Origin: Anaerolineales bacterium | Lineage (GTDB): Bacteria; Chloroflexota; Anaerolineae; Anaerolineales; E44-bin32 | Direction of reading: 5' to 3' | DNA length: 49,455 bases | Assembly: GCA_004376465.1 (NCBI GenBank) | Contig: SOJU01000091.1 | Location: forward strand, 1-49,455 | Shown: positions 1-18,539 of the stretch, piece by piece | How positions within the stretch are numbered: position 1 is the stretch's first letter | Layout of the letters: each line of letters starts with the position of its first letter | Translations under genes and position numbers: made by a program | Notes under the pieces: generated by a model | Seen by the model: the letters and a program-made list of their open reading frames with translations, nothing else | What the model was told of the DNA's origin: nothing | The model's database searches: none

Positions 1-410
1 ATTTTAAAACTAAAGGCTCATCTTGCTGCTTTATTGATCACAAGTGACCATATAAATTTCTATTCCGATAAAACATACAATCAAATATTAATTATGAAGT
101 TCTAAATACAAGACTTCTTATTCCAATTAGCCGTATCAGACCACGCCTCCTCTCGAGCCTCCGATTACGAAGGCAATCATTTGCTCCATCGATGCATGGA
201 CCGAAGCAAGATATTCGCTTCTGTTCTCCAAGCGACAGAACATGAGCAACATTCGGTTAATGAGAGAGCCTGGATCATGGGATCCCCCAACTTAAGAAGC
301 TACTTCATTAATATATAGGATGAAATCGAACGGCGCTATCCTGCGGTGGTAATAGATCCTTCATAGGGGGAGATTCCAATATCATCAATTCTCGTATCCA
401 AGCCAATTGT

Positions 411-532
411 CCTCTAATGTCCCCATCAGGGTTCCAAGAAAGTGCTTCCGATAATGAGTATAATCGGCGCCCCTCTCCGAAGTGGCATCCCCAAAGTCCA
501 CCATCCTTCTAACTTCATCTGCATTTAGATAG
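411..532. repeat. Island direct-repeat copy A (att-like unit)
   Basis: Core gcttccgataatgagtataatcgg at 444-467 with arms CCGAT/ATCGG. The flanks (cctctaatgtccccatcagg..., ccaccatccttctaacttcat...) align by eye with copies B, C and E. Confidence 0.5.
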
Positions 533-606
533 CTAAAATACTTACCATTCAACATCGCCCCTTAACATGATGTAGACTTCTGGGATTCAAACCAATGATC
601 CGGGGA

Positions 607-652
607 TTGACAATGATCACTATTAGTGATAACTTGATCACCAGAGGTGATA
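607..652 (+). promoter_or_regulatory. Putative promoter plus tandem operator of the NTase/HEPN pair
   Basis: TTGACA (607-612), 17 nt spacer, TAACTT (630-635). Two copies of TGATCAC-N5-GTGATA (614-631 and 635-652) lie 21 bp apart and overlap the -10 box and the RBS GAGGTGAT. Confidence 0.5.
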
Positions 653-1255
653 GGAATGCCAGAGGTCGATCTCCAGCAGAATCCGCTCCTCGAGCGATTA
701 TTCTCCTCGCGGGTGCGGATTCGGTTGCTATCTCATTTTCTTTTACACCCCGAAGCGCGCGACCATATCCGAGCTCTCGCCTCGGAGGTAGGCGCGCAGT
801 ACAGTGCCGTTTGGAAAGAACTCAACAACCTAGAAGGAGCCGGCTTACTCCAGAGTGAAACCGTGGGAGGTAGAAAGATTTTCACCCTTAACTCACAATT
901 TCCAATCATTCCCGAACTCCGCAATATTCTCCTCAAGACAGTCGGAGCGGGTGATCTCGTACGCGAATCTCTGGAGGATTTCGAAGGGATCGAAGTGGCA
1001 TTCATCTTCGGGTCCTTTGCTAATGGAGAGCCGGATGTTTTCTCCGATCTGGATATCATGCTCATTGGCGATCTTGATGTAGCGCAGGTTACACCCGCCA
1101 TCGATGAAATGGAGAAGATGCTGTCGCGCGATGTCAATTACGTATCGTTCACACAAGAAGAGTGGGAATCCCGACTAGAGGACGGAGACTCTTTTGTCAC
1201 GAATGTCCGAGATGCGCCCAAGGTCATGCTGATAGGAACCCATGATGACATATGA
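647..1255 (+). CDS. wHTH (ArsR-like) domain fused to a minimal nucleotidyltransferase (MNT-type antitoxin candidate)
   Basis: 202-aa ORF. The N-terminal helix-rich region resembles a winged helix. It carries the NTase motif GSFANGEPDVFSDLDIMLIGD (GS...SDxD). The likelier start is ATG 656, 5 nt after GAGGTGAT. Confidence 0.7.
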   Translation: MIGMPEVDLQQNPLLERLFSSRVRIRLLSHFLLHPEARDHIRALASEVGAQYSAVWKELNNLEGAGLLQSETVGGRKIFTLNSQFPIIPELRNILLKTVGAGDLVRESLEDFEGIEVAFIFGSFANGEPDVFSDLDIMLIGDLDVAQVTPAIDEMEKMLSRDVNYVSFTQEEWESRLEDGDSFVTNVRDAPKVMLIGTHDDI

Positions 1256-1679
1256 GAGGCTTATCAAACAAGGTCTGATAAAAGCATACGACGCCAGCGA
1301 AAAGGAAATCCGAAGTCTTCTTGAAATCGCATCTAGGGATCTCTCGACTGCCGAGAATATGGTTAGCATCAATCCAGATTGGGCATACAACATTTCTTAC
1401 AACGCTATGCTCCAATCCTCGCGTGCACTTATGCTGCGGAAGGGATTCCGCCCCAGGGGGTCAAGTCAACATGCCACGGTCGTACAATTCGTAAAGCAGA
1501 CAATCGGAGAGGAACATCGAAACTTTGCAGCGCTCTTCGATCAGATGCGGCGTAAGCGGAATCGCCTGGTTTACGATGTGGCGAGCCTTGTCGGCAAGAA
1601 GGAATGTGAGGAAGCACTATCACTAGCTCATGAGTTTGTAGCGCTGCTTAATAACTTGATCAACCAAGAACAAAGTTAG
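1242..1679 (+). CDS. HEPN-domain protein (toxin candidate of the MNT/HEPN pair)
   Basis: 145-aa helical ORF overlapping the NTase gene by 14 nt, the classic MNT-HEPN arrangement. The canonical Rx4-6H motif is not obvious; the region reads RKRNRLVYD. Confidence 0.6.
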   Translation: MMTYERLIKQGLIKAYDASEKEIRSLLEIASRDLSTAENMVSINPDWAYNISYNAMLQSSRALMLRKGFRPRGSSQHATVVQFVKQTIGEEHRNFAALFDQMRRKRNRLVYDVASLVGKKECEEALSLAHEFVALLNNLINQEQS

Positions 1680-1757
1680 TCCTGCCCCCTTCCCCAGCCT
1701 CGAGTATCTATGTTGGCATTTGATACCTCAAGTTGATGACCATCAGTGTTGCTTCCG

Positions 1758-2022
1758 GTTGGATTGACAATCCCCTTCTAGCTCTCCATCAGGAGTACCA
1801 AGTCATTCGCTCGTTTTGTTTTTCATAGTGTCCGAGCGCTTCCGATAACGAGTAATATCGGATTGCCCACCAATCATCTACTCATTCTCCTGCCCCGCTA
1901 TCACTTTACATGAAAGCAATAATCCCTGAGAAGACCCCTAACTAAAATTCACTCGTCATGCTAAGATAGAACATGTGTTCTCTTTTGCAGTATAGAGCAT
2001 ATCGTTTATATGGAAACTCATC
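1758..2022. repeat. Island direct-repeat copy B (att-like unit plus integrase upstream region)
   Basis: Core TCCGATA-acgagtaa-TATCGGA at 1841-1862 with perfect 7-bp inverted arms. It is followed by ctactcattctcctgccccgctatcactttacatgaaagca, which is shared with copies C and E. Confidence 0.65.
1968..1981. promoter_or_regulatory. LexA/Cheo-box-like palindrome upstream of integrase 1
   Basis: AGAACATGTGTTCT fits GAAC-N4-GTTC. It lies 42 nt upstream of ATG 2023 and abuts a TAAGAT -10-like hexamer (1962-1967). Confidence 0.45.
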
Positions 2023-3015
2023 ATGAAGGGCGAGATGAAACAGTACGATGCATTATCACCGATAGATCTCCTCGAAAAGCTGCGCGCTTGGCTGATTATA
2101 GAAGTATCGCAGGGGGACCCCAGCCCAAACACACTTCGATCCTATATAGGAAGTGCGAAATCATATGTCCTGTGGTGTGAGACCTCGAGAATTAACTACA
2201 TCGCGGCGACAGACAGAGATCTGAAAAGGTATCGTGCTCATTTGGTCCAAAATAAATATCGACGAGGGACAGTCGCCACACGCCTTGCGGGCCTCAGGAG
2301 ACTCTATGCGGCTTTCGTGGATTGGGGTTGGCGGGAAGACAATCCCACCATTGGACTAAAAGCAAGAAAGGATCCCACCTCAAGATCCGAGAAGATCATA
2401 TCCAAATACATACCTGACAGGGAGGCCTTCCTAGATCTTTACACAATACCCGATGAGAACACGATCAATGGCAAACGCGATCGAGCAATCTTGAGAATTC
2501 TTTGCTATACAGGCATTCGGGTAGGTGAACTCTGCGCTCTGAATAATGAGGATCTATGGCTGGGTGAACTCCCCACCCTCACTATTCGAGCCGGTAAGGG
2601 TCGCAAGCGCCGGCATATCCCCTTAGGAGAGAACGATGCCATTGTTCTGCAAGATTGGCTGGGGCTGCGAAGCACCATAGGAGGCTCTGATGCCGAAACC
2701 TTGTTTATTTCACTCGATCACAGAGCAAGAGGAAGTAGGCTTTCAACTAGGGGGGCTCGTAATATTGTGAATAAATATCTAAGAGAGGCAGGTATCAAGA
2801 AACCAGGACGTTCCTGTCACGCCTTACGCCATTCGACCGCAACATGGCTGTTGGAAGCTGGTGTCCCTATGCAGGCGATAGCCGATCTCCTCGGCCATTC
2901 TTCTGTTGATGTCACGGCAATATATGCGCGAGTTGTTGATCATCGAAAATATACACCGGGGGAAGTTCTCTCAAAGGTCATCCGAGAGGCACTTATCCGA
3001 TATCACCGAATCTAA
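2023..3015 (+). CDS. Tyrosine recombinase/integrase, paralog 1
   Basis: 330 aa. It has an N-terminal SAM-like core-binding domain. Catalytic elements are TGIRVGEL (Arg), HALRHSTATWL (HxxR) and LGHSSVDVTAIYARV (His/Tyr). Confidence 0.9.
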   Translation: MKGEMKQYDALSPIDLLEKLRAWLIIEVSQGDPSPNTLRSYIGSAKSYVLWCETSRINYIAATDRDLKRYRAHLVQNKYRRGTVATRLAGLRRLYAAFVDWGWREDNPTIGLKARKDPTSRSEKIISKYIPDREAFLDLYTIPDENTINGKRDRAILRILCYTGIRVGELCALNNEDLWLGELPTLTIRAGKGRKRRHIPLGENDAIVLQDWLGLRSTIGGSDAETLFISLDHRARGSRLSTRGARNIVNKYLREAGIKKPGRSCHALRHSTATWLLEAGVPMQAIADLLGHSSVDVTAIYARVVDHRKYTPGEVLSKVIREALIRYHRI

Positions 3016-3056
3016 CACACTAGCCTGCATCATTTGAAGTGTAGATCACAAAAGCA

Positions 3057-3311
3057 GTTGGATTCAGGCAGCTTTTCTTCTAAATCAGCGGTCCGTCCAT
3101 TATGTTTTTTTGCCCATTAGCTTCCGTTTATGGGCATAATAGGAATGCCTGCCCATCCTCTACTCATTCTCCTGTCTCGCTATCACTTTACATGAAAGCA
3201 AAGCCCCAATAATCTCTGAGAAGACCCCTAACTAATACCCATTCGTCGTGCTAAGATAGAACAAGTGTTCTCTTCTGCGGTCAAAGGCTAATCTTTAAAA
3301 GGAAACTCATT
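3057..3311. repeat. Island direct-repeat copy C (att-like unit plus integrase upstream region)
   Basis: Core gcttccgtttatgggcataatagg at 3120-3143, followed by aatgcctgcccatcctctactcattctcctgtctcgctatcactttacatgaaagca. It lies 1282 bp from the copy B core. Confidence 0.65.
3258..3271. promoter_or_regulatory. LexA/Cheo-box-like palindrome upstream of integrase 2
   Basis: AGAACAAGTGTTCT fits GAAC-N4-GTTC. It lies 41 nt upstream of ATG 3312, at the same relative position as in copy B. Confidence 0.45.
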
Positions 3312-4313
3312 ATGAAAGGCGAGAGAAAACAGCACAAGTCATTATCGGCGATAGATCTCATTGAGAGGCTGCACACCTGGCTGATTATGGAAGTCTCACA
3401 GGGCGATCCCAGCCGTAACACCCTTCGATCTTATCTGGGCAGTACAAAATCATACCTCTTATGGTGCGAGGCCTCGGGTATTAACTTCGTTGCAGCGACG
3501 GATTTTGATCTGAAAAGATATCGTGCTCACTTAGTTCAAAGTAAATACCGGCCCGGGACAATTTCAACATACCTTGCAGGCGTCAAGCGACTATATGAGG
3601 CGCTCGTTGATTGGGGTTGGCGGAGAGACAATCCTGCCAATGAATTAAAAGCAAGGAAGGATCTCACCTCAAGATCTGAGAGGATCATATCCAAATATAT
3701 ACCCGACCGGGATACCTTCCTGGATTTATATAAAATACCTGAGGAGAACTCGATCATGGGCAAACGCGATCGAGCAATCTTGCGCATTCTTTGCTATACA
3801 GGCATTCGGGTGAGTGAACTTTGTGCTTTGAATCAGGATGACCTACAGCTTGGCAAGCTCCCCACCCTTACAATACGTGCCGGAAAAGGTCGCAAACGCC
3901 GGCATATCCCTCTAGGAGAGATCGATGCCGATGTTCTGAAAGACTGGCTGGATCTACGCAGTGCATTCGAGGGGCCAGATAATGAGACTTTACTAATCTC
4001 GCTTGATCATAGGACCAGGGGAACCCGACTTTCCACTCGAGGTGCTCGAAATATTGTGAATAAATATTTAGAAATTGCAGGGATAAAGAAACCCGGGCGT
4101 TCTTGTCATGCATTGCGCCATTCCACCGCTACATGGCTGTTGGAAGCGGGCGTGCCCATGCAAGCGATAGCGGATCTACTCGGCCATTCATCAGTTGATG
4201 TGACAGCGATCTACGCCCGTGTCGTTGATCACCGGAAATACACCCCAGGGGATGTGCTATCAAGGGCAATCAGAGAGGCACTTATCCAATACCAAACGAA
4301 TCTAGCACACTAA
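3312..4313 (+). CDS. Tyrosine recombinase/integrase, paralog 2
   Basis: 333 aa, about 80% identical to paralog 1 by manual alignment. The catalytic C-terminal ~50 aa are identical despite about 27 silent nucleotide differences. Confidence 0.9.
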   Translation: MKGERKQHKSLSAIDLIERLHTWLIMEVSQGDPSRNTLRSYLGSTKSYLLWCEASGINFVAATDFDLKRYRAHLVQSKYRPGTISTYLAGVKRLYEALVDWGWRRDNPANELKARKDLTSRSERIISKYIPDRDTFLDLYKIPEENSIMGKRDRAILRILCYTGIRVSELCALNQDDLQLGKLPTLTIRAGKGRKRRHIPLGEIDADVLKDWLDLRSAFEGPDNETLLISLDHRTRGTRLSTRGARNIVNKYLEIAGIKKPGRSCHALRHSTATWLLEAGVPMQAIADLLGHSSVDVTAIYARVVDHRKYTPGDVLSRAIREALIQYQTNLAH

Positions 4314-4334
4314 CAGGTAGAGTTCTAATAAACA

Positions 4335-4425
4335 CTTGGATAAAGGCAATCCATTCTCCTAAATCGGCAGCCCTTCATTTTAAATATCTTGCTCCCTAGC
4401 TTCCGTTTGGTAGAACTATCGGAAC
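4335..4425. repeat. Island direct-repeat copy D (att-like unit, left part only)
   Basis: Core gcttccgtttggtagaactatcgg at 4399-4422, 1279 bp from the copy C core. The upstream hairpin TGGATaaaggcaATCCA is homologous to those in B and C. Confidence 0.55.
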
Positions 4426-4574
4426 CAAACTTTATGGGAAGAAGGACATATAAACAAGCTGAAGAATATTGCTCTTTTGATTCCAGTATTGGGGAATACC
4501 GGTACCTGGTTCTCCCAGACAACACCGAAAAGTCGGACACATTTCACTTATCGCGTGTGTTTGACCAATACGAT

Positions 4575-5990
4575 TCACTCAGCAGTGATAGATGCTGACG
4601 TCATATCCTTCATTCCAAACAAAGAAACACCTTCATTTTTTGCCTTGTCTTCGAGCGCAGGCGTGTATCCTGAACGAGAGAACAATACATAGCGGATATC
4701 CTGCAGTCCCATGCTCTCGATGATTGGGTTTGATTTCCGCATGAGATCATCAAGAATATTCGTTCCTACTCGACGGTTTGTCCACTTACACTCCCCAAAG
4801 AGTGCTGTATCGTCGTTGTACGCCAGTATATCGATTTCTTCATTCCTGTCCCACCAGGACCCCATCCGGTCCGGCGCAAAAGGCAAGTTTGCCGTTCCAA
4901 CATGCTCCATTAACCAATTTCTACAAATATCCTCAAAGACTGGGCCCATGAATGCGGTAAATTCTGATTTAACTTCGTCTAACACAGGCTTCAAATAACC
5001 TCGCTCTAAAAACGTCTGGTTCGGTGCGACAAATCTGAACCAGAACCGTAAAAATGGATCTTTGATACGATATATGCCTTTCCGGCTTTTCTCCGGTCTG
5101 CGTTCTGTGCCTGGCACAGTGCGCTCTACCAGGTACAGATCCTGAAGCACTGCAAGATATTTGGACACCGCTTGCCGCTCAAGTCCAGCAGTTTGAACAA
5201 TCTCATTAAGTTTCGTGCGCCCATGTGCTATTGCTTGAAGTATCGCGAAGTAATTACGAGGCTCGCGCAATTCCTCACGCAAGAGAAATTGTGGTTCGAG
5301 ATAGAGAAAACTTCCCTGCCTAAGGATCTGGCGTTCTATGTTCTTAGTCAATGTATCTCGATCATCAAACTGATTAAGGTATGCAGGTATGCCGCCCAGT
5401 ATTCCATAAGCTTCTATCTGATTTTTTATACTGTACCGTTTAAAGAAAGATGCAGTAGCCCTAAACGAAAGTGGAGCCAGATGGATTTGTCCTGTCCGGC
5501 GGCCATAAAGCGGCGCTCGATATGCTAATACTTCACGTTCCATCATCCCAATCTGTGATCCACACAGAATTAACATGAGTTTCGTTTGCTGCAGATCTTT
5601 GTCCCACACATTTTGCATTACGGACGAAACGCTCGCGTCAGTGTTAACCAGATAAGGGAATTCGTCTATGACAACAACGAGGCGCTGATTAGACGAAGTC
5701 TCGGCAAGTGCTCTAAAGGCATGCTCCCAACTCTCGTATGTAAAACCGGGCCCGTTACCACCCTCATGAGTGAATTGCCACAACTCCTGCGTAATTCCGC
5801 GCCGTAAAATTGCATCCGAACTGAGACTTGCCGTCCAAAAAATGCTCGACCTGCTCTCGCAAAATGTCTGCAGCAAGGCCGTCTTCCCCACCCTGCGGCG
5901 GCCGTACACCACTATGAACTCCGCTTTATCAGACCCCCACGCGTCTTCCAAGACAGCCAATTCCTGTTCCCGATTAATAAACATCGCCAT
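4575..5990 (-). CDS. AAA-type ATPase of the archaeal-ATPase/DUF234 family
   Basis: 471 aa. Walker A is YGRRRVGKTALL and Walker B is LVVVIDEFPYL. The C-terminal region resembles the DUF234/wHTH tail typical of this family. Confidence 0.75.
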   Translation of the reverse strand: MAMFINREQELAVLEDAWGSDKAEFIVVYGRRRVGKTALLQTFCESRSSIFWTASLSSDAILRRGITQELWQFTHEGGNGPGFTYESWEHAFRALAETSSNQRLVVVIDEFPYLVNTDASVSSVMQNVWDKDLQQTKLMLILCGSQIGMMEREVLAYRAPLYGRRTGQIHLAPLSFRATASFFKRYSIKNQIEAYGILGGIPAYLNQFDDRDTLTKNIERQILRQGSFLYLEPQFLLREELREPRNYFAILQAIAHGRTKLNEIVQTAGLERQAVSKYLAVLQDLYLVERTVPGTERRPEKSRKGIYRIKDPFLRFWFRFVAPNQTFLERGYLKPVLDEVKSEFTAFMGPVFEDICRNWLMEHVGTANLPFAPDRMGSWWDRNEEIDILAYNDDTALFGECKWTNRRVGTNILDDLMRKSNPIIESMGLQDIRYVLFSRSGYTPALEDKAKNEGVSLFGMKDMTSASITAE

Positions 5991-6011
5991 CCTCTTTTTT
6001 GTCTACTTCAT

Positions 6012-6037
6012 ATTAGTCTATTCTTGATTAGACTAAT
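6012..6037. promoter_or_regulatory. Perfect 9-bp inverted repeat upstream of the ATPase gene
   Basis: ATTAGTCTA-ttcttgat-TAGACTAAT, 22-47 nt upstream of the minus-strand start at 5990. It has operator-like geometry. Confidence 0.4.
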
Positions 6038-6140
6038 TTTAGCACAAAATTTGTTTGAATAAAACTCAATAAAGTTAATTCTTATTGGGTCTTGGGAGAA
6101 TTGAGGTTTCGTTTTACGCGAGGGGAGCGCCCAAAATCTG

Positions 6141-6240
6141 ACCTCCCCGTCATCTTTTAGCTGCTGATATTGAGCATTAATCGGAATGCCTGCCTATCCT
6201 CTCCCCATTCTCTTGTTTCGCTGTCACTTTACATGAAGGA
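6141..6240. repeat. Island direct-repeat copy E (att-like unit)
   Basis: Core gctgctgatattgagcattaatcgg at 6160-6184, followed by aatgcctgcctatcctctccccattctcttgtttcgctgtcactttacatgaagg, which is near-identical to copy C. No integrase follows. Confidence 0.6.
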
Positions 6241-7105
6241 AAAACCCTACCTCTGATAAAGGAACTCCTCAAGGGAAGCAAAACGCCAAGCTCTCTACTT
6301 CATTTCTTGATGGCATTAAAGAAACGGTCGAAACAGAGGCGAGAGCAGCCTAGATTTAACGGCGGTTTATCGGCGCTTTAATGGCGGAAATGATATAATA
6401 TGGGTATGACTTATAAATTTGAATTGACACCCTCAATTGTGCGTTATCTACAGATAATTGAACGTGTGCGAGAAACGGTGCGCCTGACCATGCTGCCACC
6501 CTGTGATGGCCGAAAATAGTCATCCGTCCTAAAAAATGTGCTTGAACATACTCTAAGCGGTACAATCACGGTCTTGAATTCATGACAGGGAAGGCAGACC
6601 GTGATTTCATCTCTTCGCCAATGCTCCGAATACATCTTGAATGCCGTCGCACAGCACTGTGCTGGCTACTTAACTCATCCATCCAATCTTTCGGTACGTA
6701 TGCGAATCTGTTGACTTCATCCGAATGGGATACCATACTGCCCGATCTTCTACTTCCTCGATATTGGACAGAATATATTTAAAGACATCCTAGTTTATTG
6801 GAAACCCATACTCGGGGATATAACTGAGCAAGGAAACCATTGATCTATTTATCGGGATTAACGATAGGTGATATGCCACCTACCCTTCGACTGTCCACCC
6901 CTGCAAAGCGTTCCCATTGACGAAACAGGTACGCCTAAAATCATGGACGAGCTGGTTACTCCGATCATAGCAGAACTACCAAGCAATGAAATTCCCGATG
7001 ATAAACTGCACCAATCTGCACCAGAAAATGCAAACCTGCCTAATAGACAGGTCCGGAAAGAATAATGATTGGGTGGTTTTATGTGTAATCGGTCCTAGAA
7101 TAAGG

Positions 7106-7178
7106 CGCCCCCGGTGCGATTCGAACGCACAGCCTACGGATTAGAAGTCCGGTGCTCTGTCCATTGAGCTACGGGGGC
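7106..7178 (-). tRNA. tRNA-Arg (anticodon TCT)
   Basis: The 73-nt reverse complement folds as a cloverleaf. The acceptor is GCCCCCG/CGGGGGC, the D stem GCTC/GAGC, the anticodon loop CTTCTAA and the T arm GTGCG-TTCGAAT-CGCAC. Its 3' end faces the island. Confidence 0.9.
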
Positions 7179-7211
7179 AGAATTCAATTGTATTGCAAAG
7201 CTCGACGGGGA

Positions 7212-7661
7212 TCAATCCTCAAGCAGAGGTCTAATTCCTTTATATACTCTCCCACCAGAGAGCATACGCAGGATCGTCCGTGCGGGGCGGTTAAGGGTTT
7301 CATCCAACTCTTCGGGCGTGAGGGGTAAGTTTCCGTTCGATAAGAACACGCGGAAAATAGCGTTTACCAAGGTCGTCTGCGGTGTCAAATAATCCGGTTG
7401 TAAAGCGCAGTGAGAAATCAGCGTATGTTGAATTCCAAGGACTCGGGTGACCTCCGCTGTTTTTGGATTCACACTGTCAACCAGCGTATCGGCTTCGACA
7501 TCCGCATACACTTCCTGATGCTCCGGGCAGAGATGACTGCGAAGATAAATATTCAGATCCCGGTCCGCACGGTCCCAATACTCAAAATCAATATGATATT
7601 TAGTATCCAATGTTTGTCGAGTGAGGATGGAGGATGCTTGTTTTGTCACGACGAACCCCAT
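7212..7661 (-). CDS. Hypothetical protein (149 aa), coupled to the upstream 531-aa gene
   Basis: Clean ORF overlapping the upstream gene by 16 nt. No motif recognised. Confidence 0.55.
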   Translation of the reverse strand: MGFVVTKQASSILTRQTLDTKYHIDFEYWDRADRDLNIYLRSHLCPEHQEVYADVEADTLVDSVNPKTAEVTRVLGIQHTLISHCALQPDYLTPQTTLVNAIFRVFLSNGNLPLTPEELDETLNRPARTILRMLSGGRVYKGIRPLLED

Positions 7662-9241
7662 GCTTCCGCGTCGAATCGCCAGTAAAGATCCCCCACATGT
7701 TGGAAATATGGATGCTTGATAAGCTCGGCAAAGATCGTTGACGGTGGCTGCCGTTGGATGACATTCACCGCAGCATAAAGCGTCTGTGCGTGCACAGCGC
7801 TTTGTGGAGTCAGTTTGGCTAACTCCCGAAATACATGCACTACAGTTCGATCGAGGGGTTGCTTCTGATGCTGCGATTGCATCCAGACTTCATCGAGAGC
7901 CTGGGTATCAATTAGCCCGATCACCATCAAATCATCATAGGCCGTCCCAACCGGCTGCTTAAGCATCGTGAACCCTATCCGACCATTCTCAGTGATAGTT
8001 ACCGTACGGATCCAATCATTACGCATGCGTCGATCAAACGTTTCTACGACCACTTCGCCAGGGGCATCGCCAGGGTGGACGCGTACAAGTCCTCCCGCCG
8101 GGACCTTATACTCTTGATACCAGTCTTCCAAGCCAAAGACATATCCATACTCACGCACAACCCATCCCGGGAATCTCTCCCCACTGTGCCCATCAATAAG
8201 AACGAAACGAATTCTTGGAGCCTCATAAGCCGTTGGGAAAAGGTGTTGAAGACGAGCCGACAATGGAAGTGCGCCCACTCTCCAATGAGGGAAAATCAGC
8301 GTGACGGTAACATCATCCGGCGCGACATCCGGAGCTTGCAAATCACTCATTTCATCATCCAACTTTGTTATGAGTTCTTGCAGCTCATCTGTAAGGATGG
8401 ATGAATCAATGGCTTTATCCTGGCTTTCCAGGCGTGGAGGTGCAAACAGTACTTCTGGCGGTTCAAGCCGCCGTAAAAACCAGAGAACCTGACCGGCTGG
8501 TCCGACTTCATCGAAACGTTCATCTTCCTGCAGCGCGTAATCAAGCGAAAACTCCGCGAGCCCTGTAGAAAGCGACTCGGGCAGTTCAACATGTTCAAGC
8601 AGGTCCGCTGTCGGCAAAGGGCCACCAGCTTCAACGTCGAGTACGGCCTCGGCAAGGTTTAAATGTCCATCGGTAATCTCAGCCACAAGCGCGCTCGGGA
8701 ACCATTTCCCGGCGATGCTGACGATGTCATCTACCTTATCTAGACTCTCATCCAAATTCGCAACGACGAATTCCCCATACCGGGACATTATATTTTCCGG
8801 TTTACGCAATTCTTCGATTTCAGGATCTGGCTCAGGTGGGCTGTTCAGAATATGATCCGCCAGTTCAGATGCGAACTCTTTCTCTGACTCGTCCCCTGCG
8901 AAAGCAACCTTGATCACAGAAAAGGAATCAAGATCCGGGTTGTTGCCCTCCCGCACACCAACAACTTCTCCGGTTTCAAACTCTAACTGCGAGAACGCTA
9001 GGACCTGTCCTGCTTTGTAAGTTTCTGAGGGGATGTAAATGGCATGTTCCGTCTGTTCTGCCTCTTGGGCCTCTTTCTCCAATTGAATTAAACGCTGCTC
9101 AACAAGTGCGGACGCCATCTCATCAGACGTGAGAGGAACCTCCCGCTCTAGCAGGAGGTTGATGATGAAATCGATATCGTCGTCTTTGACCTCAAAACTG
9201 GTCCAATACGATTCAGAAGAAATACTTTGCACAGATGCCAT
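7646..9241 (-). CDS. Hypothetical acidic multi-domain protein (531 aa)
   Basis: Long D/E-rich ORF. There is a possible N-terminal wHTH (DIDFIINLLLEREVPLTSDEMASALV), a coiled segment and two SH3-like beta-rich stretches. No catalytic motif recognised. Confidence 0.6.
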   Translation of the reverse strand: MASVQSISSESYWTSFEVKDDDIDFIINLLLEREVPLTSDEMASALVEQRLIQLEKEAQEAEQTEHAIYIPSETYKAGQVLAFSQLEFETGEVVGVREGNNPDLDSFSVIKVAFAGDESEKEFASELADHILNSPPEPDPEIEELRKPENIMSRYGEFVVANLDESLDKVDDIVSIAGKWFPSALVAEITDGHLNLAEAVLDVEAGGPLPTADLLEHVELPESLSTGLAEFSLDYALQEDERFDEVGPAGQVLWFLRRLEPPEVLFAPPRLESQDKAIDSSILTDELQELITKLDDEMSDLQAPDVAPDDVTVTLIFPHWRVGALPLSARLQHLFPTAYEAPRIRFVLIDGHSGERFPGWVVREYGYVFGLEDWYQEYKVPAGGLVRVHPGDAPGEVVVETFDRRMRNDWIRTVTITENGRIGFTMLKQPVGTAYDDLMVIGLIDTQALDEVWMQSQHQKQPLDRTVVHVFRELAKLTPQSAVHAQTLYAAVNVIQRQPPSTIFAELIKHPYFQHVGDLYWRFDAEAWGSS

Positions 9242-9570: not shown

Positions 9571-10952
9571 CCCGGGTCAACCCAGTCCAGAGGATTAATA
9601 GGCACACCGCCAACCCAGATTTCCCAATGCAGATGGGGTCCAGTCGATCTCCCTGTGGTCCCTACAATCCCTATCTCCTGTCCCCTTTCAACAATGTCGC
9701 CTTCTTGAACAAACATTTCCGATTGGTGGAAATATCCTGAATACACTCCCCAACCGTGGTCAATATAGGTCACATTTCCCCTTATTAAAAGTGGTCCTGC
9801 AAAAACAACGACCCCATCAGCCGGCGCATAGATAGGAATATCACTGCCATAGAAATCCACCCCGGTATGGTAGTACATCAAGGCGCCATTATTGTAATTA
9901 CGCCGGTCCCCAAAAACGGCGATGAACTCGTCAGTGTAATAGCGAGAGGGATATTCAAAGGATCCGTCCCAAAGCTTATCGGGAGTGAGCGGTGCAAGAA
10001 GCTCCGCTACGAAGTCCTCTTCATGCTGAATAATTTCCAGATCGACCGTTTCTGCAGGGACTCCAACGATATACTGGAAACCATAATCACCATCTTCGAC
10101 CATAACCGGTTGGATAAACGCATAGCTGGTCTCCTCCCCCTCAGACAGTGCCATCCGCAGCTCAAGGTCGATCAACCCCGGCTCGGCTAAAGCGGGGATG
10201 CCCTGCAGAGCGACGAGTCCCCCTTCATCAGCAGGAAAGAATGTAAGCTGATGGTCTCCGAGTGAACCCTCAAGATAAATAGGGCGACTCACTTCTGCTT
10301 TAATCACGACGGTATGCCCTTGAGCTACCGGGAGGGGATCGATCGAAATTGAAGTTATGGGTTCAGGGAGTGAGACTCTCCATCCCATCGAATCGGTCAG
10401 TGGATTCCCGGGCATTGCCCAAACACGCAGCGGAGCCAAAGCAGAGCGCCGCAGATCCCATGGATTAATCCCGGCGCGGGCCGCGATTTCCAGCCTGGTT
10501 TCCCCACGTTGCGGCAGAAATGCGCCAACATCACCCTCGGGGATTGCATCTTCCGCGGGTTCAGGGACGATGAGCGACTGCCCAACGTAGAGTCGATCTG
10601 GTCGGACAAGTCGATTAAGGCGGGCCAAAGCATCCATTGACAGATTGTAACGAAGGCTCAAGCTATTCAAATCTTCGCCGAAGCCGACTTCCTGCAAAGT
10701 CAATACACCTTCAACGTCTTCGAAGCCCGGGATCGTCAGTTCTGCACCGGGGAAAAGTTTGGAAGGGTCATCTATCCCATTTAACGCAACCATCGCCTCA
10801 ACGGTGGTGCCAAAGCGGCGGGCGATGCCCGATAGCGTGTCACCAGGTTCGACAATATATATCGGTCCCCCGCCCTGCGCTTGAACGGCGGCTGCCGGAA
10901 ATAGCACCATGACGAGGACGAGAAACAGGAGTAATTTATACCTACTCTTCAT
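9561..10952 (-). CDS. Secreted LysM-repeat / M23 family metalloendopeptidase
   Basis: Signal peptide MKSRYKLLLFLVLVMVLFPAAAVQA starts at ATG 10952. LysM motifs are YIVEPGDTLSGIARRFG and similar. The M23 motifs are HTGVDF and GPHLHWEI. Confidence 0.85.
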   Translation of the reverse strand: MKSRYKLLLFLVLVMVLFPAAAVQAQGGGPIYIVEPGDTLSGIARRFGTTVEAMVALNGIDDPSKLFPGAELTIPGFEDVEGVLTLQEVGFGEDLNSLSLRYNLSMDALARLNRLVRPDRLYVGQSLIVPEPAEDAIPEGDVGAFLPQRGETRLEIAARAGINPWDLRRSALAPLRVWAMPGNPLTDSMGWRVSLPEPITSISIDPLPVAQGHTVVIKAEVSRPIYLEGSLGDHQLTFFPADEGGLVALQGIPALAEPGLIDLELRMALSEGEETSYAFIQPVMVEDGDYGFQYIVGVPAETVDLEIIQHEEDFVAELLAPLTPDKLWDGSFEYPSRYYTDEFIAVFGDRRNYNNGALMYYHTGVDFYGSDIPIYAPADGVVVFAGPLLIRGNVTYIDHGWGVYSGYFHQSEMFVQEGDIVERGQEIGIVGTTGRSTGPHLHWEIWVGGVPINPLDWVDPGYP

Positions 10953-11894: not shown

Positions 11895-12512
11895 TCACGG
11901 GCTGATCCCTGCCCAAGGTTGATAATAATCCTGTGGAAGGACCGAATTCTGGGGGTCTAAATATCCTGCCGCGAAAATTTCTTCCGCCAATGATATCCCG
12001 ACGTAGCGGATATGCCATGGTTCGTGGATGAACTCCGTCACCTGCGGCATCCAGCGATTGTTATATGGCCACCCCTCAATCTCCTTATAGGGATAGCTCA
12101 GGACAAACCCGAAATGATGTGCATTTTCCTCGAGCCAGATATACAACTGCTCATTCCTGGGATCGCTGAATTCGACTTGTAGTCCGGGCCACACGAGATC
12201 GAATGCGGTCCCGAGTTGGTGCTCGCTGTAGCCTGGCTCCGCAACGTAGAAACCGGCAGTTGAAGGTCTTTCCCTCCATTCCCGCTCCACAGCGGAGCCT
12301 TGTTTTGAGTAGCTCCGATATCCGGAATAAACAATGGCTTTAATTCCGGCATCACCCGCCTCTGATATCAAGTCTTCCAGCGCTGAAACAGCATCAGAGT
12401 GAGGGCCAGGGTCAAACCAGAGCGGGAGCGGGTGACGCGCGTCAACAAGCACATCCAGCGGTGCGCCCATGAGCATGTGCACTACGATATAGAGCTCTAC
12501 GAGAAGCTTCAA
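11895..12512 (-). CDS. VanY-like D-alanyl-D-alanine carboxypeptidase (peptidase M15B)
   Basis: LAS metallopeptidase motifs SGYRSYSKQ, SEHQLGTAFD (Hx6D) and EPWHIRY (ExxH). Confidence 0.75.
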   Translation of the reverse strand: MKLLVELYIVVHMLMGAPLDVLVDARHPLPLWFDPGPHSDAVSALEDLISEAGDAGIKAIVYSGYRSYSKQGSAVEREWRERPSTAGFYVAEPGYSEHQLGTAFDLVWPGLQVEFSDPRNEQLYIWLEENAHHFGFVLSYPYKEIEGWPYNNRWMPQVTEFIHEPWHIRYVGISLAEEIFAAGYLDPQNSVLPQDYYQPWAGISP

Positions 12513-17196: not shown

Positions 17197-17625
17197 TTGA
17201 CAAAAAAACAGCCGATACATGACCTGTATATGCGCGAACTCACGGTGGAGGAAACTGACGGGTTGACTAAATTCCACGTGCTGTGCGATGAGGATCACCT
17301 CCTGCGGCGTTTTGGTGAGGTGCAAGTAATTCGCAAATCACCAGAACGGAGCGAGACTTTACGTCTGCGGGAAGTGGCGGACGAGGTGTGGGCTCTCATT
17401 GAAGGACAAGTAGAGTTCGCCTGGCATGACCTGCGGCAGGATTCGCCATCACAAGGCCACTGGCACCACCTTCACGCCGAGACACCGACACTTATCCTGG
17501 CGCCATTCGGCGTGGCTTTCGGCTGCCGCGCTCTGGAAGATACGGCTTTTCTAATTCGCCTGAGCACACACGCCGAGGGGGAACACTCTGGGGATCGAGA
17601 GATTCCCTGGGAAATTGAAGCATGA
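17197..17625 (+). CDS. Cupin-fold protein (RmlC-like)
   Basis: The ORF track gives 17122..17625. The likelier start is TTG 17197, after AGGAGG. The beta-rich EVWALIEGQVEFAWHD...LILAPFGVAFGCRA stretch resembles cupin epimerase-like proteins. Confidence 0.5.
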   Translation: MTKKQPIHDLYMRELTVEETDGLTKFHVLCDEDHLLRRFGEVQVIRKSPERSETLRLREVADEVWALIEGQVEFAWHDLRQDSPSQGHWHHLHAETPTLILAPFGVAFGCRALEDTAFLIRLSTHAEGEHSGDREIPWEIEA

Positions 17626-18539
17626 GCCGATCGAAAGAATATCTAAAATTGTTCTTGCATCTAAGCCGCCCGCTTTTCCTCACGGGTGGATTTCTACTTT
17701 ACGGTTTGGGCACCGCAATCGCCACTTACCTGGGAAAGCCCATTGACTGGAGTCTCTACATTCTCGGTCAGTTACTCGTTACATCCATCCAATTGATGGC
17801 ACAGGCCATGGTTGCATTCTTCGATGGCACTTCAAATCTAGAAGTTACCTTCCAATCTCTCTTCAGTGGAGATCGGAAAGCGCTCGATCCAGAGCATTTA
17901 CCGTATACGGCCGCGTTAATCTCCACTATCGTCACGCTGACGATCTCAGCGACACTCGCTGCCCTCCTCCTGATTGTGAAGAATGTTAGTTTTGTGCCAT
18001 GGGCATTCATGCTGATGGGCTTCTTCGCCGCCTTCTTCTACAGCACTCCACCCGTGAGGTTGATCACCAGTGGCTTTGGAGAAATAATCGCATCAATCGT
18101 TGTCGCGAGTTTTGTGCCCATTTTCTCGTTTACACTGCAGGCCGGTGAACTTCACCGGCTGCTCCCCATGAGCACGATCCCATTGGCAGCGTTGCTCTTC
18201 GCGGCGTTTATCGCATCTGAATTCGCCGATTATGCCTCTGATCTGAAGCGAGACCGGAAGACGCTGATGGTTCGGCTCGGGTGGGAAACTGCCATGAAGC
18301 TCCATGATCTAGCCATCCTTTTCGCGATCCTGAGCTTCATAACCGCTTACATCCTGGGCTTACCAGACCGTGTGGCGCTTGGCGCTTTGATCTCTTTTCC
18401 CCTGGCCATCGCGCAGGTCTGGCAGTTGAATCGCATCAAAGCAGGGTTCCCTCCACGCTGGCGCACATTCACGCTCAGCGCGCTCGCCTTATTCGCAATG
18501 ACCACCTACCTGGAATTGATGGGGTACATCTTTAGCTGA
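17622..18539 (+). CDS. UbiA-family prenyltransferase-like membrane protein
   Basis: 305 aa with about 8-9 hydrophobic helices. It has the Asp-rich loop FADYASDLKRDRK. It overlaps the cupin gene by 4 nt. Confidence 0.5.
   Translation: MSRSKEYLKLFLHLSRPLFLTGGFLLYGLGTAIATYLGKPIDWSLYILGQLLVTSIQLMAQAMVAFFDGTSNLEVTFQSLFSGDRKALDPEHLPYTAALISTIVTLTISATLAALLLIVKNVSFVPWAFMLMGFFAAFFYSTPPVRLITSGFGEIIASIVVASFVPIFSFTLQAGELHRLLPMSTIPLAALLFAAFIASEFADYASDLKRDRKTLMVRLGWETAMKLHDLAILFAILSFITAYILGLPDRVALGALISFPLAIAQVWQLNRIKAGFPPRWRTFTLSALALFAMTTYLELMGYIFS

Follow-up and report, generated by a model that had tools for sequence, protein, structure and literature searches.

The first 7.2 kb of contig SOJU01000091.1 from an Anaerolineales bacterium (assembly GCA_004376465.1; the whole stretch of 49,455 nucleotides analysed here is called the window) carry two genes for Xer-like tyrosine recombinases, int1 and int2, set among five direct copies, A to E, of a short repeat. 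We read this region, with a probability of roughly 0.6, as a chromosomal array of modules bordered by 28-bp duplex sites of a dedicated Anaerolineales clade of Xer-like recombinases, two of which are encoded in the array itself. Indeed, the sites are specific to the surroundings of this clade, the recombinases are intact and under purifying selection, the flanks of the sites reassort at the cores, and the identity between the window and the sister strain L001 breaks at core A. From left to right, the array holds a toxin-antitoxin (TA) pair of the MNT/HEPN type, int1, int2, an ATPase gene and about 1.1 kb without intact genes, up to a gene for tRNA-Arg(TCT). The GC content of this island is 46-47%, as compared with 50-55% in the rest of the window and the flank. 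The same arrangement is found again in two other assemblies, L001 (JGI) and L002 (Logan), which makes three independent assemblies including the window. The names L001 to L061 denote the loci or contigs compared with the window, and all the comparative evidence comes from metagenome assemblies.

Core sites and the Xer-like recombinases

A repeat finder and multiple alignment indicate that copies A to E have in common a near-palindromic core of 28 bp, in which a 6-nt spacer separates two 11-nt arms, and that all five lie in direct orientation. Symmetry analysis of at least 17 sites gives the consensus GCTTCCGATWA-N6-TWATCGGAA, with a dif-like 11-6-11 geometry. A preliminary description of this DNA had proposed five direct copies, with core-to-core distances of 1282 nt between B and C and 1279 nt between C and D, and had likened them to the core site of a tyrosine recombinase. 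The copies are borne out far beyond chance, as 17-mers taken from them recur, with up to 3 mismatches, at the copies only, and a site matrix gives five strong hits, all inside 1-7300, against 0.32 hits per shuffled window. The distances are exact and the geometry is upheld, with the repeats sitting exactly on the module borders; the arms are inverted as described (for example TCCGATA/TATCGGA in B), while the spacer is 6 nt and not 8-10 nt. The five spacers of the window are all different (Table 1), and the right arm of core E, the site with the longer spacer, has the best right-arm score in the region (14.7). Outside the core, the copies are unequal. B and C are real copies that do not stand alone, as they make up the non-coding portion of a tandem unit of 1289 bp (core, P' leader of about 160 nt, integrase, P trailer of about 100 nt) with 77-80% nucleotide identity throughout. 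Copy A has only a core of about 27 nt in common with B to E, copy D shares the P trailer (left flank) and the core with nothing on the right, and copy E shares the core and 60-70 nt of P' (right flank) with nothing on the left. The cores form no stable hairpins (z from -0.5 to -2.2, dG from -2.7 to -5.8 kcal/mol), and a search of Rfam at E <= 1 returned only the tRNA-Arg gene, as two overlapping hits, together with a chance match to GlsR14 that overlies core E and, at 21.7 bits, stays below the gathering threshold of 90.

The distribution of the sites follows that of the integrases. With a matrix derived solely from the four window cores and counted at a score of at least 15, there are 49 sites in 289 kb around integrases of the clade, none in 315 kb of control loci (other integrases and relatives lacking an array, 85 kb of it from close relatives) and one weak site in the 42 kb that make up the remainder of the window, with 0-3 hits in shuffled loci. 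These counts are not those of a repetitive extragenic palindrome (REP) or a miniature inverted-repeat transposable element (MITE) found genome-wide, the alternative that the preliminary description had put forward. Of 37 loci, 19 have a site no further than 300 nt downstream from the integrase, as compared with 3 of 400 control windows. In addition, the strong sites are all direct (five in the window, seven in L003, and five in L004 with a weak sixth at 276); L004 also shows one moderate reverse-strand hit at 916, with a score of 17.5.

Weaker core-like sequences were also seen. The one at 155-184 of the window has a counterpart in L004, the site at position 276 (score 15.0), and the homology of the window with L001, L003 and L004 begins at about 156-160; further left, the window and L001 are unrelated. 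Core-like sites can be clustered about 40 nt (or 80 nt) apart, as at 4397/4477 in the window, 11653/11691 and 13349/13389/13429 in L048, 10947/10987/11068 in L050, and 3172/3214 in L017, and these clusters may be accessory binding sites or nested remnants. Far from the array, within the open reading frame (ORF) region 17622-18539, the isolated core-like sequence TCGCTTCAGATCAGAGGCATAATCGGCGAA at 18222-18251 on the minus strand (score 16.1) is either a chance occurrence or a solitary target site.

The two recombinases are made of a SAM-like N domain and a catalytic domain, with no arm-binding domain detected by Pfam. In NCBIfam they score 151-154 bits for XerC (the best match of int1) against a cutoff of 335, 140-143 for XerD against 330, and 49-54 for NF011946, used as a test of the IntI family, against 435. 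The closest PDB match for int1 is XerD (1a0p), with XerA and XerH also among the PDB matches. The catalytic residues R166, K192, H266, R269, H292 and Y301 are intact in int1, and the same R-K-H-R-H-Y set is present in int2 and in 10 relatives. In particular, the ratio of nonsynonymous to synonymous divergence (dN/dS) is 0.12 between int1 and int2, at a dS of 1.05, within a range of 0.11-0.25. Despite this dS, the non-coding core and leader of the two genes are 80-82% identical, which argues that the non-coding DNA is constrained. Moreover, int1 shares 95% identity with the only integrase of L003 and no more than 80% with int2; the two window genes are thus old separate lineages and not the result of a recent local duplication, int2 being a lineage of its own that was gained or lost as one unit. 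As to the leaders, the one of int1 (1866-2022) is 85% identical to L003 9837-10000, against 97% for the flanking TA module and 96% for int1. Since this L003 leader resembles the int2 type, leaders seem to have been exchanged between modules.

The integrase clade ranges over Anaerolineales metagenome-assembled genomes (MAGs) and sediment-type metagenomes, where its homologues are mostly found on short contigs or at contig ends and where several clade loci can be present in one MAG (L049 and L051). No relative closer than 29-34% identity was found in viral contigs or plasmid records, with none above 34% in plasmids, and terminal overlaps, the signature of circular or tandem DNA, were not found in integrase-only contigs of 1.2-1.3 kb.

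A further feature of the integrase leaders is a GAAC-N4-GTTC palindrome with an AT-rich centre, located 40-55 nt before the start codon of int1, int2 and each integrase of the close clade (L003, L004, L005, L007 and L008/9). The box takes the forms GAACATGTGTTC, GAACAAGTGTTC, GAACATATGTTC, GAACAATAGTTC and GAACATAAGTTC and is found in relatives at L003 9948 and 13801, L004 8955, L005 407, L007 1921, L008 1432 and L012 1305; in L012 it stands at -96, and it is also present in a leader of L003 that has no integrase. All 12 AT-centred boxes in 667 kb lie within these leaders, the background being 0.011 per 300 nt, and the box is absent from the 52-57% subclade of integrases. This form matches the LexA (Cheo-box type) box of Gram-positive bacteria, and the same box is reportedly used by Dehalococcoides (Fernandez de Henestrosa et al. 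2002, J Bacteriol). The box suggests that the expression of the recombinase, and hence any shuffling, would be controlled by DNA damage through the SOS response. A scan for promoter consensus sequences gave no more hits than in shuffles.

Proposed module exchange and competing explanations

Comparison with L003 and L004 places the junctions between modules at the cores. Window 160-3130, which includes the 280-nt element to the left of core A (Table 1), core A, the TA pair, core B, int1 and the left arm of core C, corresponds to L003 8134-11111 at 95.5% identity. The homology stops inside core C, at 3130, where L003 has a module for an extracytoplasmic function (ECF) sigma factor and the window has int2. 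After the sigma factor, L003 continues with a core followed by a C-type leader, then a response regulator, a methyltransferase, a histidine kinase, a Fic gene and an inverted MNT/HEPN module, while on its left side a giant AEP-TOTE/reverse-transcriptase gene and a HEPN_LA2681-TPR gene are each preceded by a 280-nt element and an A-type core. In L004, a 280-nt element and an A-type core are followed by the genes of a 643-aa protein, of a 1613-aa alpha-2-macroglobulin and of an integrase, then by AbiEi/AbiEii, and lastly by an E-type core whose short leader precedes an intact Fic gene. When 18 cores are compared, their 70-nt left and right flanks reassort independently: the left flanks agree and the right ones do not in winA/L004a (81% and 27%), L003a/L003b (74% and 17%) and L003f/L004e (84% and 26%), and the reverse is seen in winC/L003e (29% and 94%), the divergence point being at the left core edge, within the spacer or at the right core edge. 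Relatives with a different order or number of modules, which had been set as a test of the preliminary description, are thus on hand, with their junctions within the core.

The cargo families recur beside the integrase clade in varied positions and orientations. Indeed, the MNT/HEPN pair is found there in L003 (twice), L007, L008/9, L017 and L018, a nucleotidyltransferase ORF in L048, and homologues of the ATPase in L005 (plus strand, 57%) and L035 (minus strand, 49%). In the distant loci L050, L018 and L017, one integrase is followed by 3-4 sites at intervals of 1-3 kb, with integrase-less cargo. The early idea that each module has a single function roughly holds in the window; it does not in L007 and L008, where one and the same module holds the integrase and the TA pair, nor in L003, in which modules have 3-4 genes. 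Among the cargo of L003, the minus-strand gene at 2452-7614 encodes a 1720-aa fusion of an AEP-TOTE primase and a reverse transcriptase. Further cargo and neighbours, at L048 6886-9348 and L050 5367-9471, include a BrxL-protein kinase fusion (BREX-type) and a helicase with a NucS-like nuclease. The arrays thus lie in defence islands, some of them abutting BREX-type and helicase/nuclease genes.

The pattern of identity with L001 adds a left end to this picture. L001 and the window are unrelated to the left of 155, differ at 49 positions between 158 and 434 (82% identity), show one mismatch in the spacer of core A and only 8 mismatches in the 6.8 kb from 460 to 7238 (about 99.9% identity from core A to the tRNA), and diverge by about 6% beyond 7239. 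This indicates that lineages several percent apart in their chromosomes have recently come to share the segment between core A, its left end, and the tRNA. Separately, six of the eight island mismatches fall within 150 nt of the MNT gene (window 1041-1190), a cluster that suggests a small patch of recombination.

In terms of mechanism, a recombinase dimer would bind each core, two cores would synapse as a tetramer, and strand exchange across the spacer would release the DNA between direct sites as a circle with one site; by the reverse reaction, a circle would insert at a resident site. Integrase modules (core, P' leader, integrase gene and P trailer) would be self-sufficient, and TA, ATPase, Fic and other modules would be moved in trans. 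By analogy with dif modules, the spacer would decide which sites pair, and only incoming circles with a matching spacer could insert; as all five spacers of the window differ, internal deletions are probably blocked in the present array. DNA damage would switch the recombinase on through the LexA-type box, and the MNT/HEPN pair would help to retain the array. A bolder proposal, which we put forward as tentative, is that a platform for gene capture, comparable to integrons, evolved independently in Anaerolineales. In it, an SOS-controlled, Xer-derived recombinase would act on 28-bp duplex dif-like sites to insert, excise and reshuffle modules for TA, anti-phage defence and regulatory functions, some of them encoding further recombinases, with the spacer as an address code. 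In the literature, analogues were found and no description of this integrase clade or its sites.

Several observations weigh against the reading of the region as a module array bordered by recombinase sites. No excised circle, empty internal site or recombination product was observed in the assemblies compared; mobility is inferred from metagenome assemblies, which can be chimeric at repeats, and L003 and L004 are single assemblies. Since the arms are common to all sites, breakpoints can be placed only within about 30 bp, and with five differing spacers it may be that nothing is moving now. Sites upstream of the integrase, present at 2 of 22 loci, are confined to the lineage of the window itself, and L007 and L008 are without a site between the TA pair and the integrase, so that module borders are not universal. 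Contig ends near sites are weakly enriched (7 of 78, as against 4.4%, or about 3.4, expected), with L002 starting 8 nt before core A and L008 starting 6 nt before a strong site; with an enrichment of this size, contig ends were rejected as evidence of polymorphism in the population. No core is present where the array ends on the right (7011), and the whole array therefore did not arrive by core recombination at the tRNA. Finally, the LexA reading takes its consensus from the literature on Gram-positive bacteria and Dehalococcoides and not from control of the LexA regulon in this organism.

Among the alternatives, the one to be taken most seriously, even if it is unlikely, is that the array grew by serial tandem accretion only. 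Small integrase elements would each have inserted independently at a core-like target already in place and left hybrid sites behind, the TA, ATPase and Fic genes being trapped island DNA or decayed integrase-less elements, similar to cis-mobilisable ones, and not cassettes that move by themselves. Accretion of mini-elements at one kind of site was part of the preliminary description; it remains viable and overlaps with the module-array reading, from which it differs mainly on whether integrase-less modules still move. Core D (P and core) and core E (core and P') do resemble attR and attL around the ATPase gene, and C resembles an attP-type junction of tandem elements; what is universal is the site downstream of an integrase, those upstream being lineage-specific; and the Fic gene of L004 stands between a P' leader and a P trailer, in a frame of the integrase type, as though it had taken an integrase's place. 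Accretion with integrase-less derivatives is also established for ICESt1 and its cis-mobilisable elements (CIME) and for the ssrA islands of Dehalococcoides (PMC3146451; PMC5704250). However, integrase-less modules have a good core at each of their two ends and turn up again in other neighbourhoods and orientations, with MNT/HEPN upstream of the integrase in the window and downstream in L017 and L018, and the ATPase gene on the plus strand in L005 and on the minus strand in the window. The distant loci with one integrase at the head of several sites and integrase-less cargo also speak against accretion only.

The remaining explanations are much weaker. A static locus, in which a tandem duplication of the integrase is accompanied by regulator-bound palindromic operators or terminator-like motifs and nothing recombines, would account for B and C lying within a 1289-bp tandem repeat; palindromes of this size are typical of operators, several neighbouring genes encode helix-turn-helix (HTH) proteins, and no recombination product was directly observed. 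It is nevertheless improbable, given the dS of 1.05 between int1 and int2, the 95% orthologue of int1 in L003, which has no int2 there, the reassortment of flanks at cores in several independent pairs, the identity break at core A, the sites that track the integrase clade and not HTH genes, and the lack of stable hairpins at the cores. The integrases could also be the host's dimer-resolution Xer, the cores being the chromosomal dif and dif-like sites left behind by Xer-exploiting elements (an IMEX array of the kind at Vibrio dif1), a view in keeping with the 11-6-11 geometry and with XerC and XerD as the best family and structure matches; the gene also adjoins its site in the single-recombinase systems XerS and XerH. 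This is even harder to accept, as the scores are far under the XerC and XerD equivalog cutoffs, there are two diverged tandem paralogues and several loci per MAG, close relatives have no array at this locus, the regional GC is low with a damage-type operator upstream of the integrases, and homologues are mostly on short contigs or contig ends. A 44%-identical homologue on a 547-kb contig, considered as a candidate host Xer, was rejected because of its mobile/defence setting and its lack of sites: it is flanked by a serine recombinase and by a putative defence operon with a TOP6A/Spo11-Toprim-DUF2399 protein, which we take to be JetD-like. Least credible of all is a classical integron, in which an IntI would act on an array of attC cassettes. 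The variable modules with TA genes, the possible SOS box before the recombinase and one RYYYAAC/GTTRRRY pair near C recall it, whereas the integron integrase model TIGR02249 matches the last 60 residues only, at 65-67 bits against 265 (residues 246-308, the sole match in int1 and the best of two in int2), the sites are 28-bp duplex palindromes and not folded attC of 57-141 nt, there is no divergent intI/attI/Pc arrangement, and cargo lies on both strands. The attC resemblance near C, noted in the preliminary description, was tried and given up: ATCTAAC at 3010-3016, the would-be R'' box, holds the stop codon of int1, the stretch 3005-3068 folds no better than shuffles (z = -0.8), and the repeats share the 28-bp core only.

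Array layout and the tRNA-Arg border

The features of the array are listed in Table 1.

Table 1. Features of the array and its right border in the window
Feature	Position	Strand	Sequence, match or basis
Weak core-like site	155-184	+	matrix score 10.1; left arm good (GCCTCCGATTA, 12.6), right arm degenerate; left end of the 280-nt element
280-nt element	160-443	none	non-coding, stops in 6 of 6 frames; always immediately left of A-type cores (spacer TGAGTA)
Core A	444-471	+	GCTTCCGATAA-TGAGTA-TAATCGGCGCC
Winged HTH (wHTH)-nucleotidyltransferase (MNT)	647-1255	+	Pfam Polbeta/NTP_transf_2; weak NCBIfam MntA match
HEPN	1242-1679	+	Pfam HEPN; overlaps MNT; TA pair 647-1679
Core B	1838-1865	+	GCTTCCGATAA-CGAGTA-ATATCGGATTG
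P' leader of int1	1866-2022	+	80-82% identical to int2 leader
LexA-type box	1969-1980	+	GAACATGTGTTC; in P' leader of int1
int1, Xer-like tyrosine recombinase, 330 aa	2023-3015	+	Pfam Phage_integrase and SAM-like N domain
P trailer of int1, left flank of core C	3016-3119	+	shared with left flank of D (71% over 55 nt) and L003 11020-11098
Core C	3120-3147	+	GCTTCCGTTTA-TGGGCA-TAATAGGAATG
P' leader of int2	3148-3311	+	90-94% identical to leaders of L003 (13664-13840) and L004 (8815 onward)
LexA-type box	3259-3270	+	GAACAAGTGTTC; in P' leader of int2
int2, Xer-like tyrosine recombinase, 333 aa	3312-4313	+	Pfam Phage_integrase and SAM-like N domain; 80% identical to int1
P trailer of int2	4314-4398	+	repeat alignment, flank comparison
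Core D	4399-4426	+	GCTTCCGTTTG-GTAGAA-CTATCGGAACC; repeat similarity stops at right edge
Secondary weaker core-like site	4479-4506	+	matrix score 19.5; 80 nt right of D
ATPase_2/DUF234/wHTH protein, 471 aa	4575-5990	-	Pfam
Core E	6160-6188	+	GCTGCTGATAT-TGAGCAT-TAATCGGAATG; 7-nt spacer (1 extra base)
Truncated P' leader after core E	6189-6247	+	without GAAC box; 86% identical to C leader over 70 nt
Fic-gene module remnant	6296-6514	+	upstream region and first 35 codons (6400-6504)
Decayed non-coding array remainder	6515-7010	none	no intact ORF family; right border of array at 7010/7011
Chromosomal flank outside the array	7011-7178	-	tRNA-Arg(TCT) 7104-7178 (ARAGORN, Rfam); terminator-like hairpin 7031-7055 (terminator scan)

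The 280-nt element to the left of core A is found again at L001 323-600, L003 1838-2070 and 8134-8416, and L004 281-586, with 82-91% identity. A degenerate core forms its left end. In L003 it is upstream of large defence genes on the minus strand, and it may be a promoter/leader or a dead cassette. No known RNA family was found by Rfam in this element or in the P' leader. At the array's opposite end, the DNA after core E had been described as decayed and non-coding, which is right in that it has no intact genes and incomplete in that it keeps the leading 35 codons of a Fic gene. Indeed, the truncated leader after E has its counterpart at L004 11630-11683, where it precedes the intact Fic gene, and the remnant is 91% identical to L004 11713-11930, with tblastn of the L004 Fic protein matching residues 1-35 only. 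Window 6657-6775 has a 92% match in L036.

The array ends 93 nt beyond the tRNA-Arg gene, after its terminator, and no core is found there. The preliminary description had placed a possible sixth, degenerate copy of the repeat at 7066-7092 and had taken the tRNA end for an attachment site. In that stretch the match is limited to the 7-nt TAATCGG, matrix scores stay below 3, and the sequence is kept in L061, where window 7011-7103 is conserved (12139-12231) with the same flanking genes and tRNA-Arg and with no array; the supposed copy is thus part of the terminator flank of the tRNA and was rejected as a site or attR. Moreover, no second copy of the 23-mer at the 3' end of the tRNA-Arg gene was found at up to 3 mismatches, no tRNA fragment is repeated, a remnant of a classical tRNA-adjacent integrase was not found in 6240-7100, and no flank shared by L003 or L004 with the tRNA-Arg neighbourhood was seen. 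The tRNA is a neighbour and not the attachment site. Beyond tRNA-Arg, relatives that share the 531-aa and 145/149-aa genes have either a locus with a response regulator-SpoIIE and a kinase (L058-60) or electron transfer flavoprotein (ETF) genes (L061), and three different contents past the tRNA-Arg terminator (array, ETF, response regulator-SpoIIE/kinase) mark this place as a variable spot.

Some observations concern tRNA genes and the flank more generally. The hairpin ACCTGCC...GACAGGT that follows tRNA-Arg in the window and L061 has similar counterparts after tRNA-Met in L007 (about 9795-9820) and L008 (about 8185-8210). Beside this tRNA-Met there is a second, classical tyrosine integrase, at L007 8621-9691 and L008 7013-8038 (both on the minus strand), which is 25-26% identical to int1 and lies a few kb from the Xer-like TA-integrase module, so that the module of L007 and L008 may be inside a larger, tRNA-integrated island. 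The 531-aa flanking protein of the window (7646-9241, minus strand) has no Pfam domain. Thousands of Anaerolineales sequences contain it, with identities of 57-95% and a length that is always about 531 aa; its gene belongs to the core of the order and is uncharacterised.

Comparison with known systems

Like integrons, the array has a site-specific tyrosine recombinase beside variable modules rich in TA and defence genes, with a LexA-type box before the recombinase and, in L050, L018 and L017, a single integrase at the head of the site array; a LexA-type box upstream of intI is mentioned in PMC3323433. Unlike in integrons, the recombinase here is not IntI and has no match to the portion of the model that is specific to IntI, short palindromes of the duplex type stand in place of folded single-stranded attC, the site is downstream of and co-oriented with the integrase, integrases are found inside the array, and cargo can be on either strand and can hold several genes or another integrase.

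The dif modules of Acinetobacter, in which XerC/XerD act on pdif, are similarly small and discrete, very often hold TA pairs, have 28-bp borders with two 11-nt arms and a 6-nt spacer, and vary in content between relatives. In these, adjacent pdif sites are inversely oriented, alternating C/D and D/C, and recombination needs identical or near-identical spacers (PMC13141974). In contrast, the sites described here are all direct, the recombinase genes are modules inside the array and not the host XerC/XerD acting in trans, the site flanks are conserved (P about 50-100 nt, P' about 70-170 nt), and the array appears chromosomal, from its conserved neighbourhood, in Chloroflexota, with no plasmid relative above 34% identity. 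In addition, the near-identical arms suggest a single recombinase and not a XerC plus XerD pair. The same 28-bp site with 11-nt arms and a 6-nt centre is that of XerC/XerD-dif, from which the array differs in that its recombinases are not XerC/XerD equivalogs, there are 5-7 sites in 7 kb (7 in L003) instead of a single one, and close relatives are without the locus.

In the single-recombinase systems XerS/difSL, XerH/difH and archaeal XerA/dif, the gene lies close to its site, which is near-palindromic and has a 6-nt spacer. Here too, such a site is found close to the gene of a Xer-like enzyme, about 330 aa long and with a SAM-like N domain, with the difference that each locus has many sites and paralogues, its presence varies among close relatives, and it carries accessory cargo. 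As in ICESt1/CIME and the Dehalococcoides ssrA islands, arrays are split by direct att repeats and some units are without an integrase, recognition of the repeats by the integrase being inferred for the array described here; the ssrA islands also share with it a position beside a small-RNA gene in a Chloroflexota genome (PMC3146451; PMC5704250). Such tandem-accretion elements differ in that the repeats here are not copies of a tRNA or tmRNA 3' end, the tRNA-side border is without a repeat, and the units are of 1.3-1.8 kb, with no conjugation or mobilisation genes and a Xer-like enzyme without an arm-binding domain. Genomic islands that target tRNA genes differ in turn, as there is no repeat of the tRNA 3' end here and the att core does not overlap the tRNA.

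If the sites are active, they would represent a third route to modular gene shuffling beside integrons (IntI/attC) and Acinetobacter dif modules (host XerCD/pdif), in another phylum (uncultured sediment Chloroflexota) and with a recombinase that travels as a module. SOS control would then possibly be in common with integrons, as a case of convergence; the LexA-type box upstream of intI is reportedly from Guerin et al. 2009. Such a route would help to explain the exchange of defence and TA genes where plasmids and phages are poorly known, as MNT/HEPN, AbiE, Fic and AEP-TOTE/RT modules lie between the sites, next to BREX-type genes. The short site and small recombinase would also be easy to test and might provide tools for heterospecific recombination. 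Collectively, the system is not an integron, not XerCD/dif, not of the Acinetobacter dif-module type, given the orientation of its sites and the recombinase in trans of the latter, and not a tRNA-att island, and it works like a blend of them.

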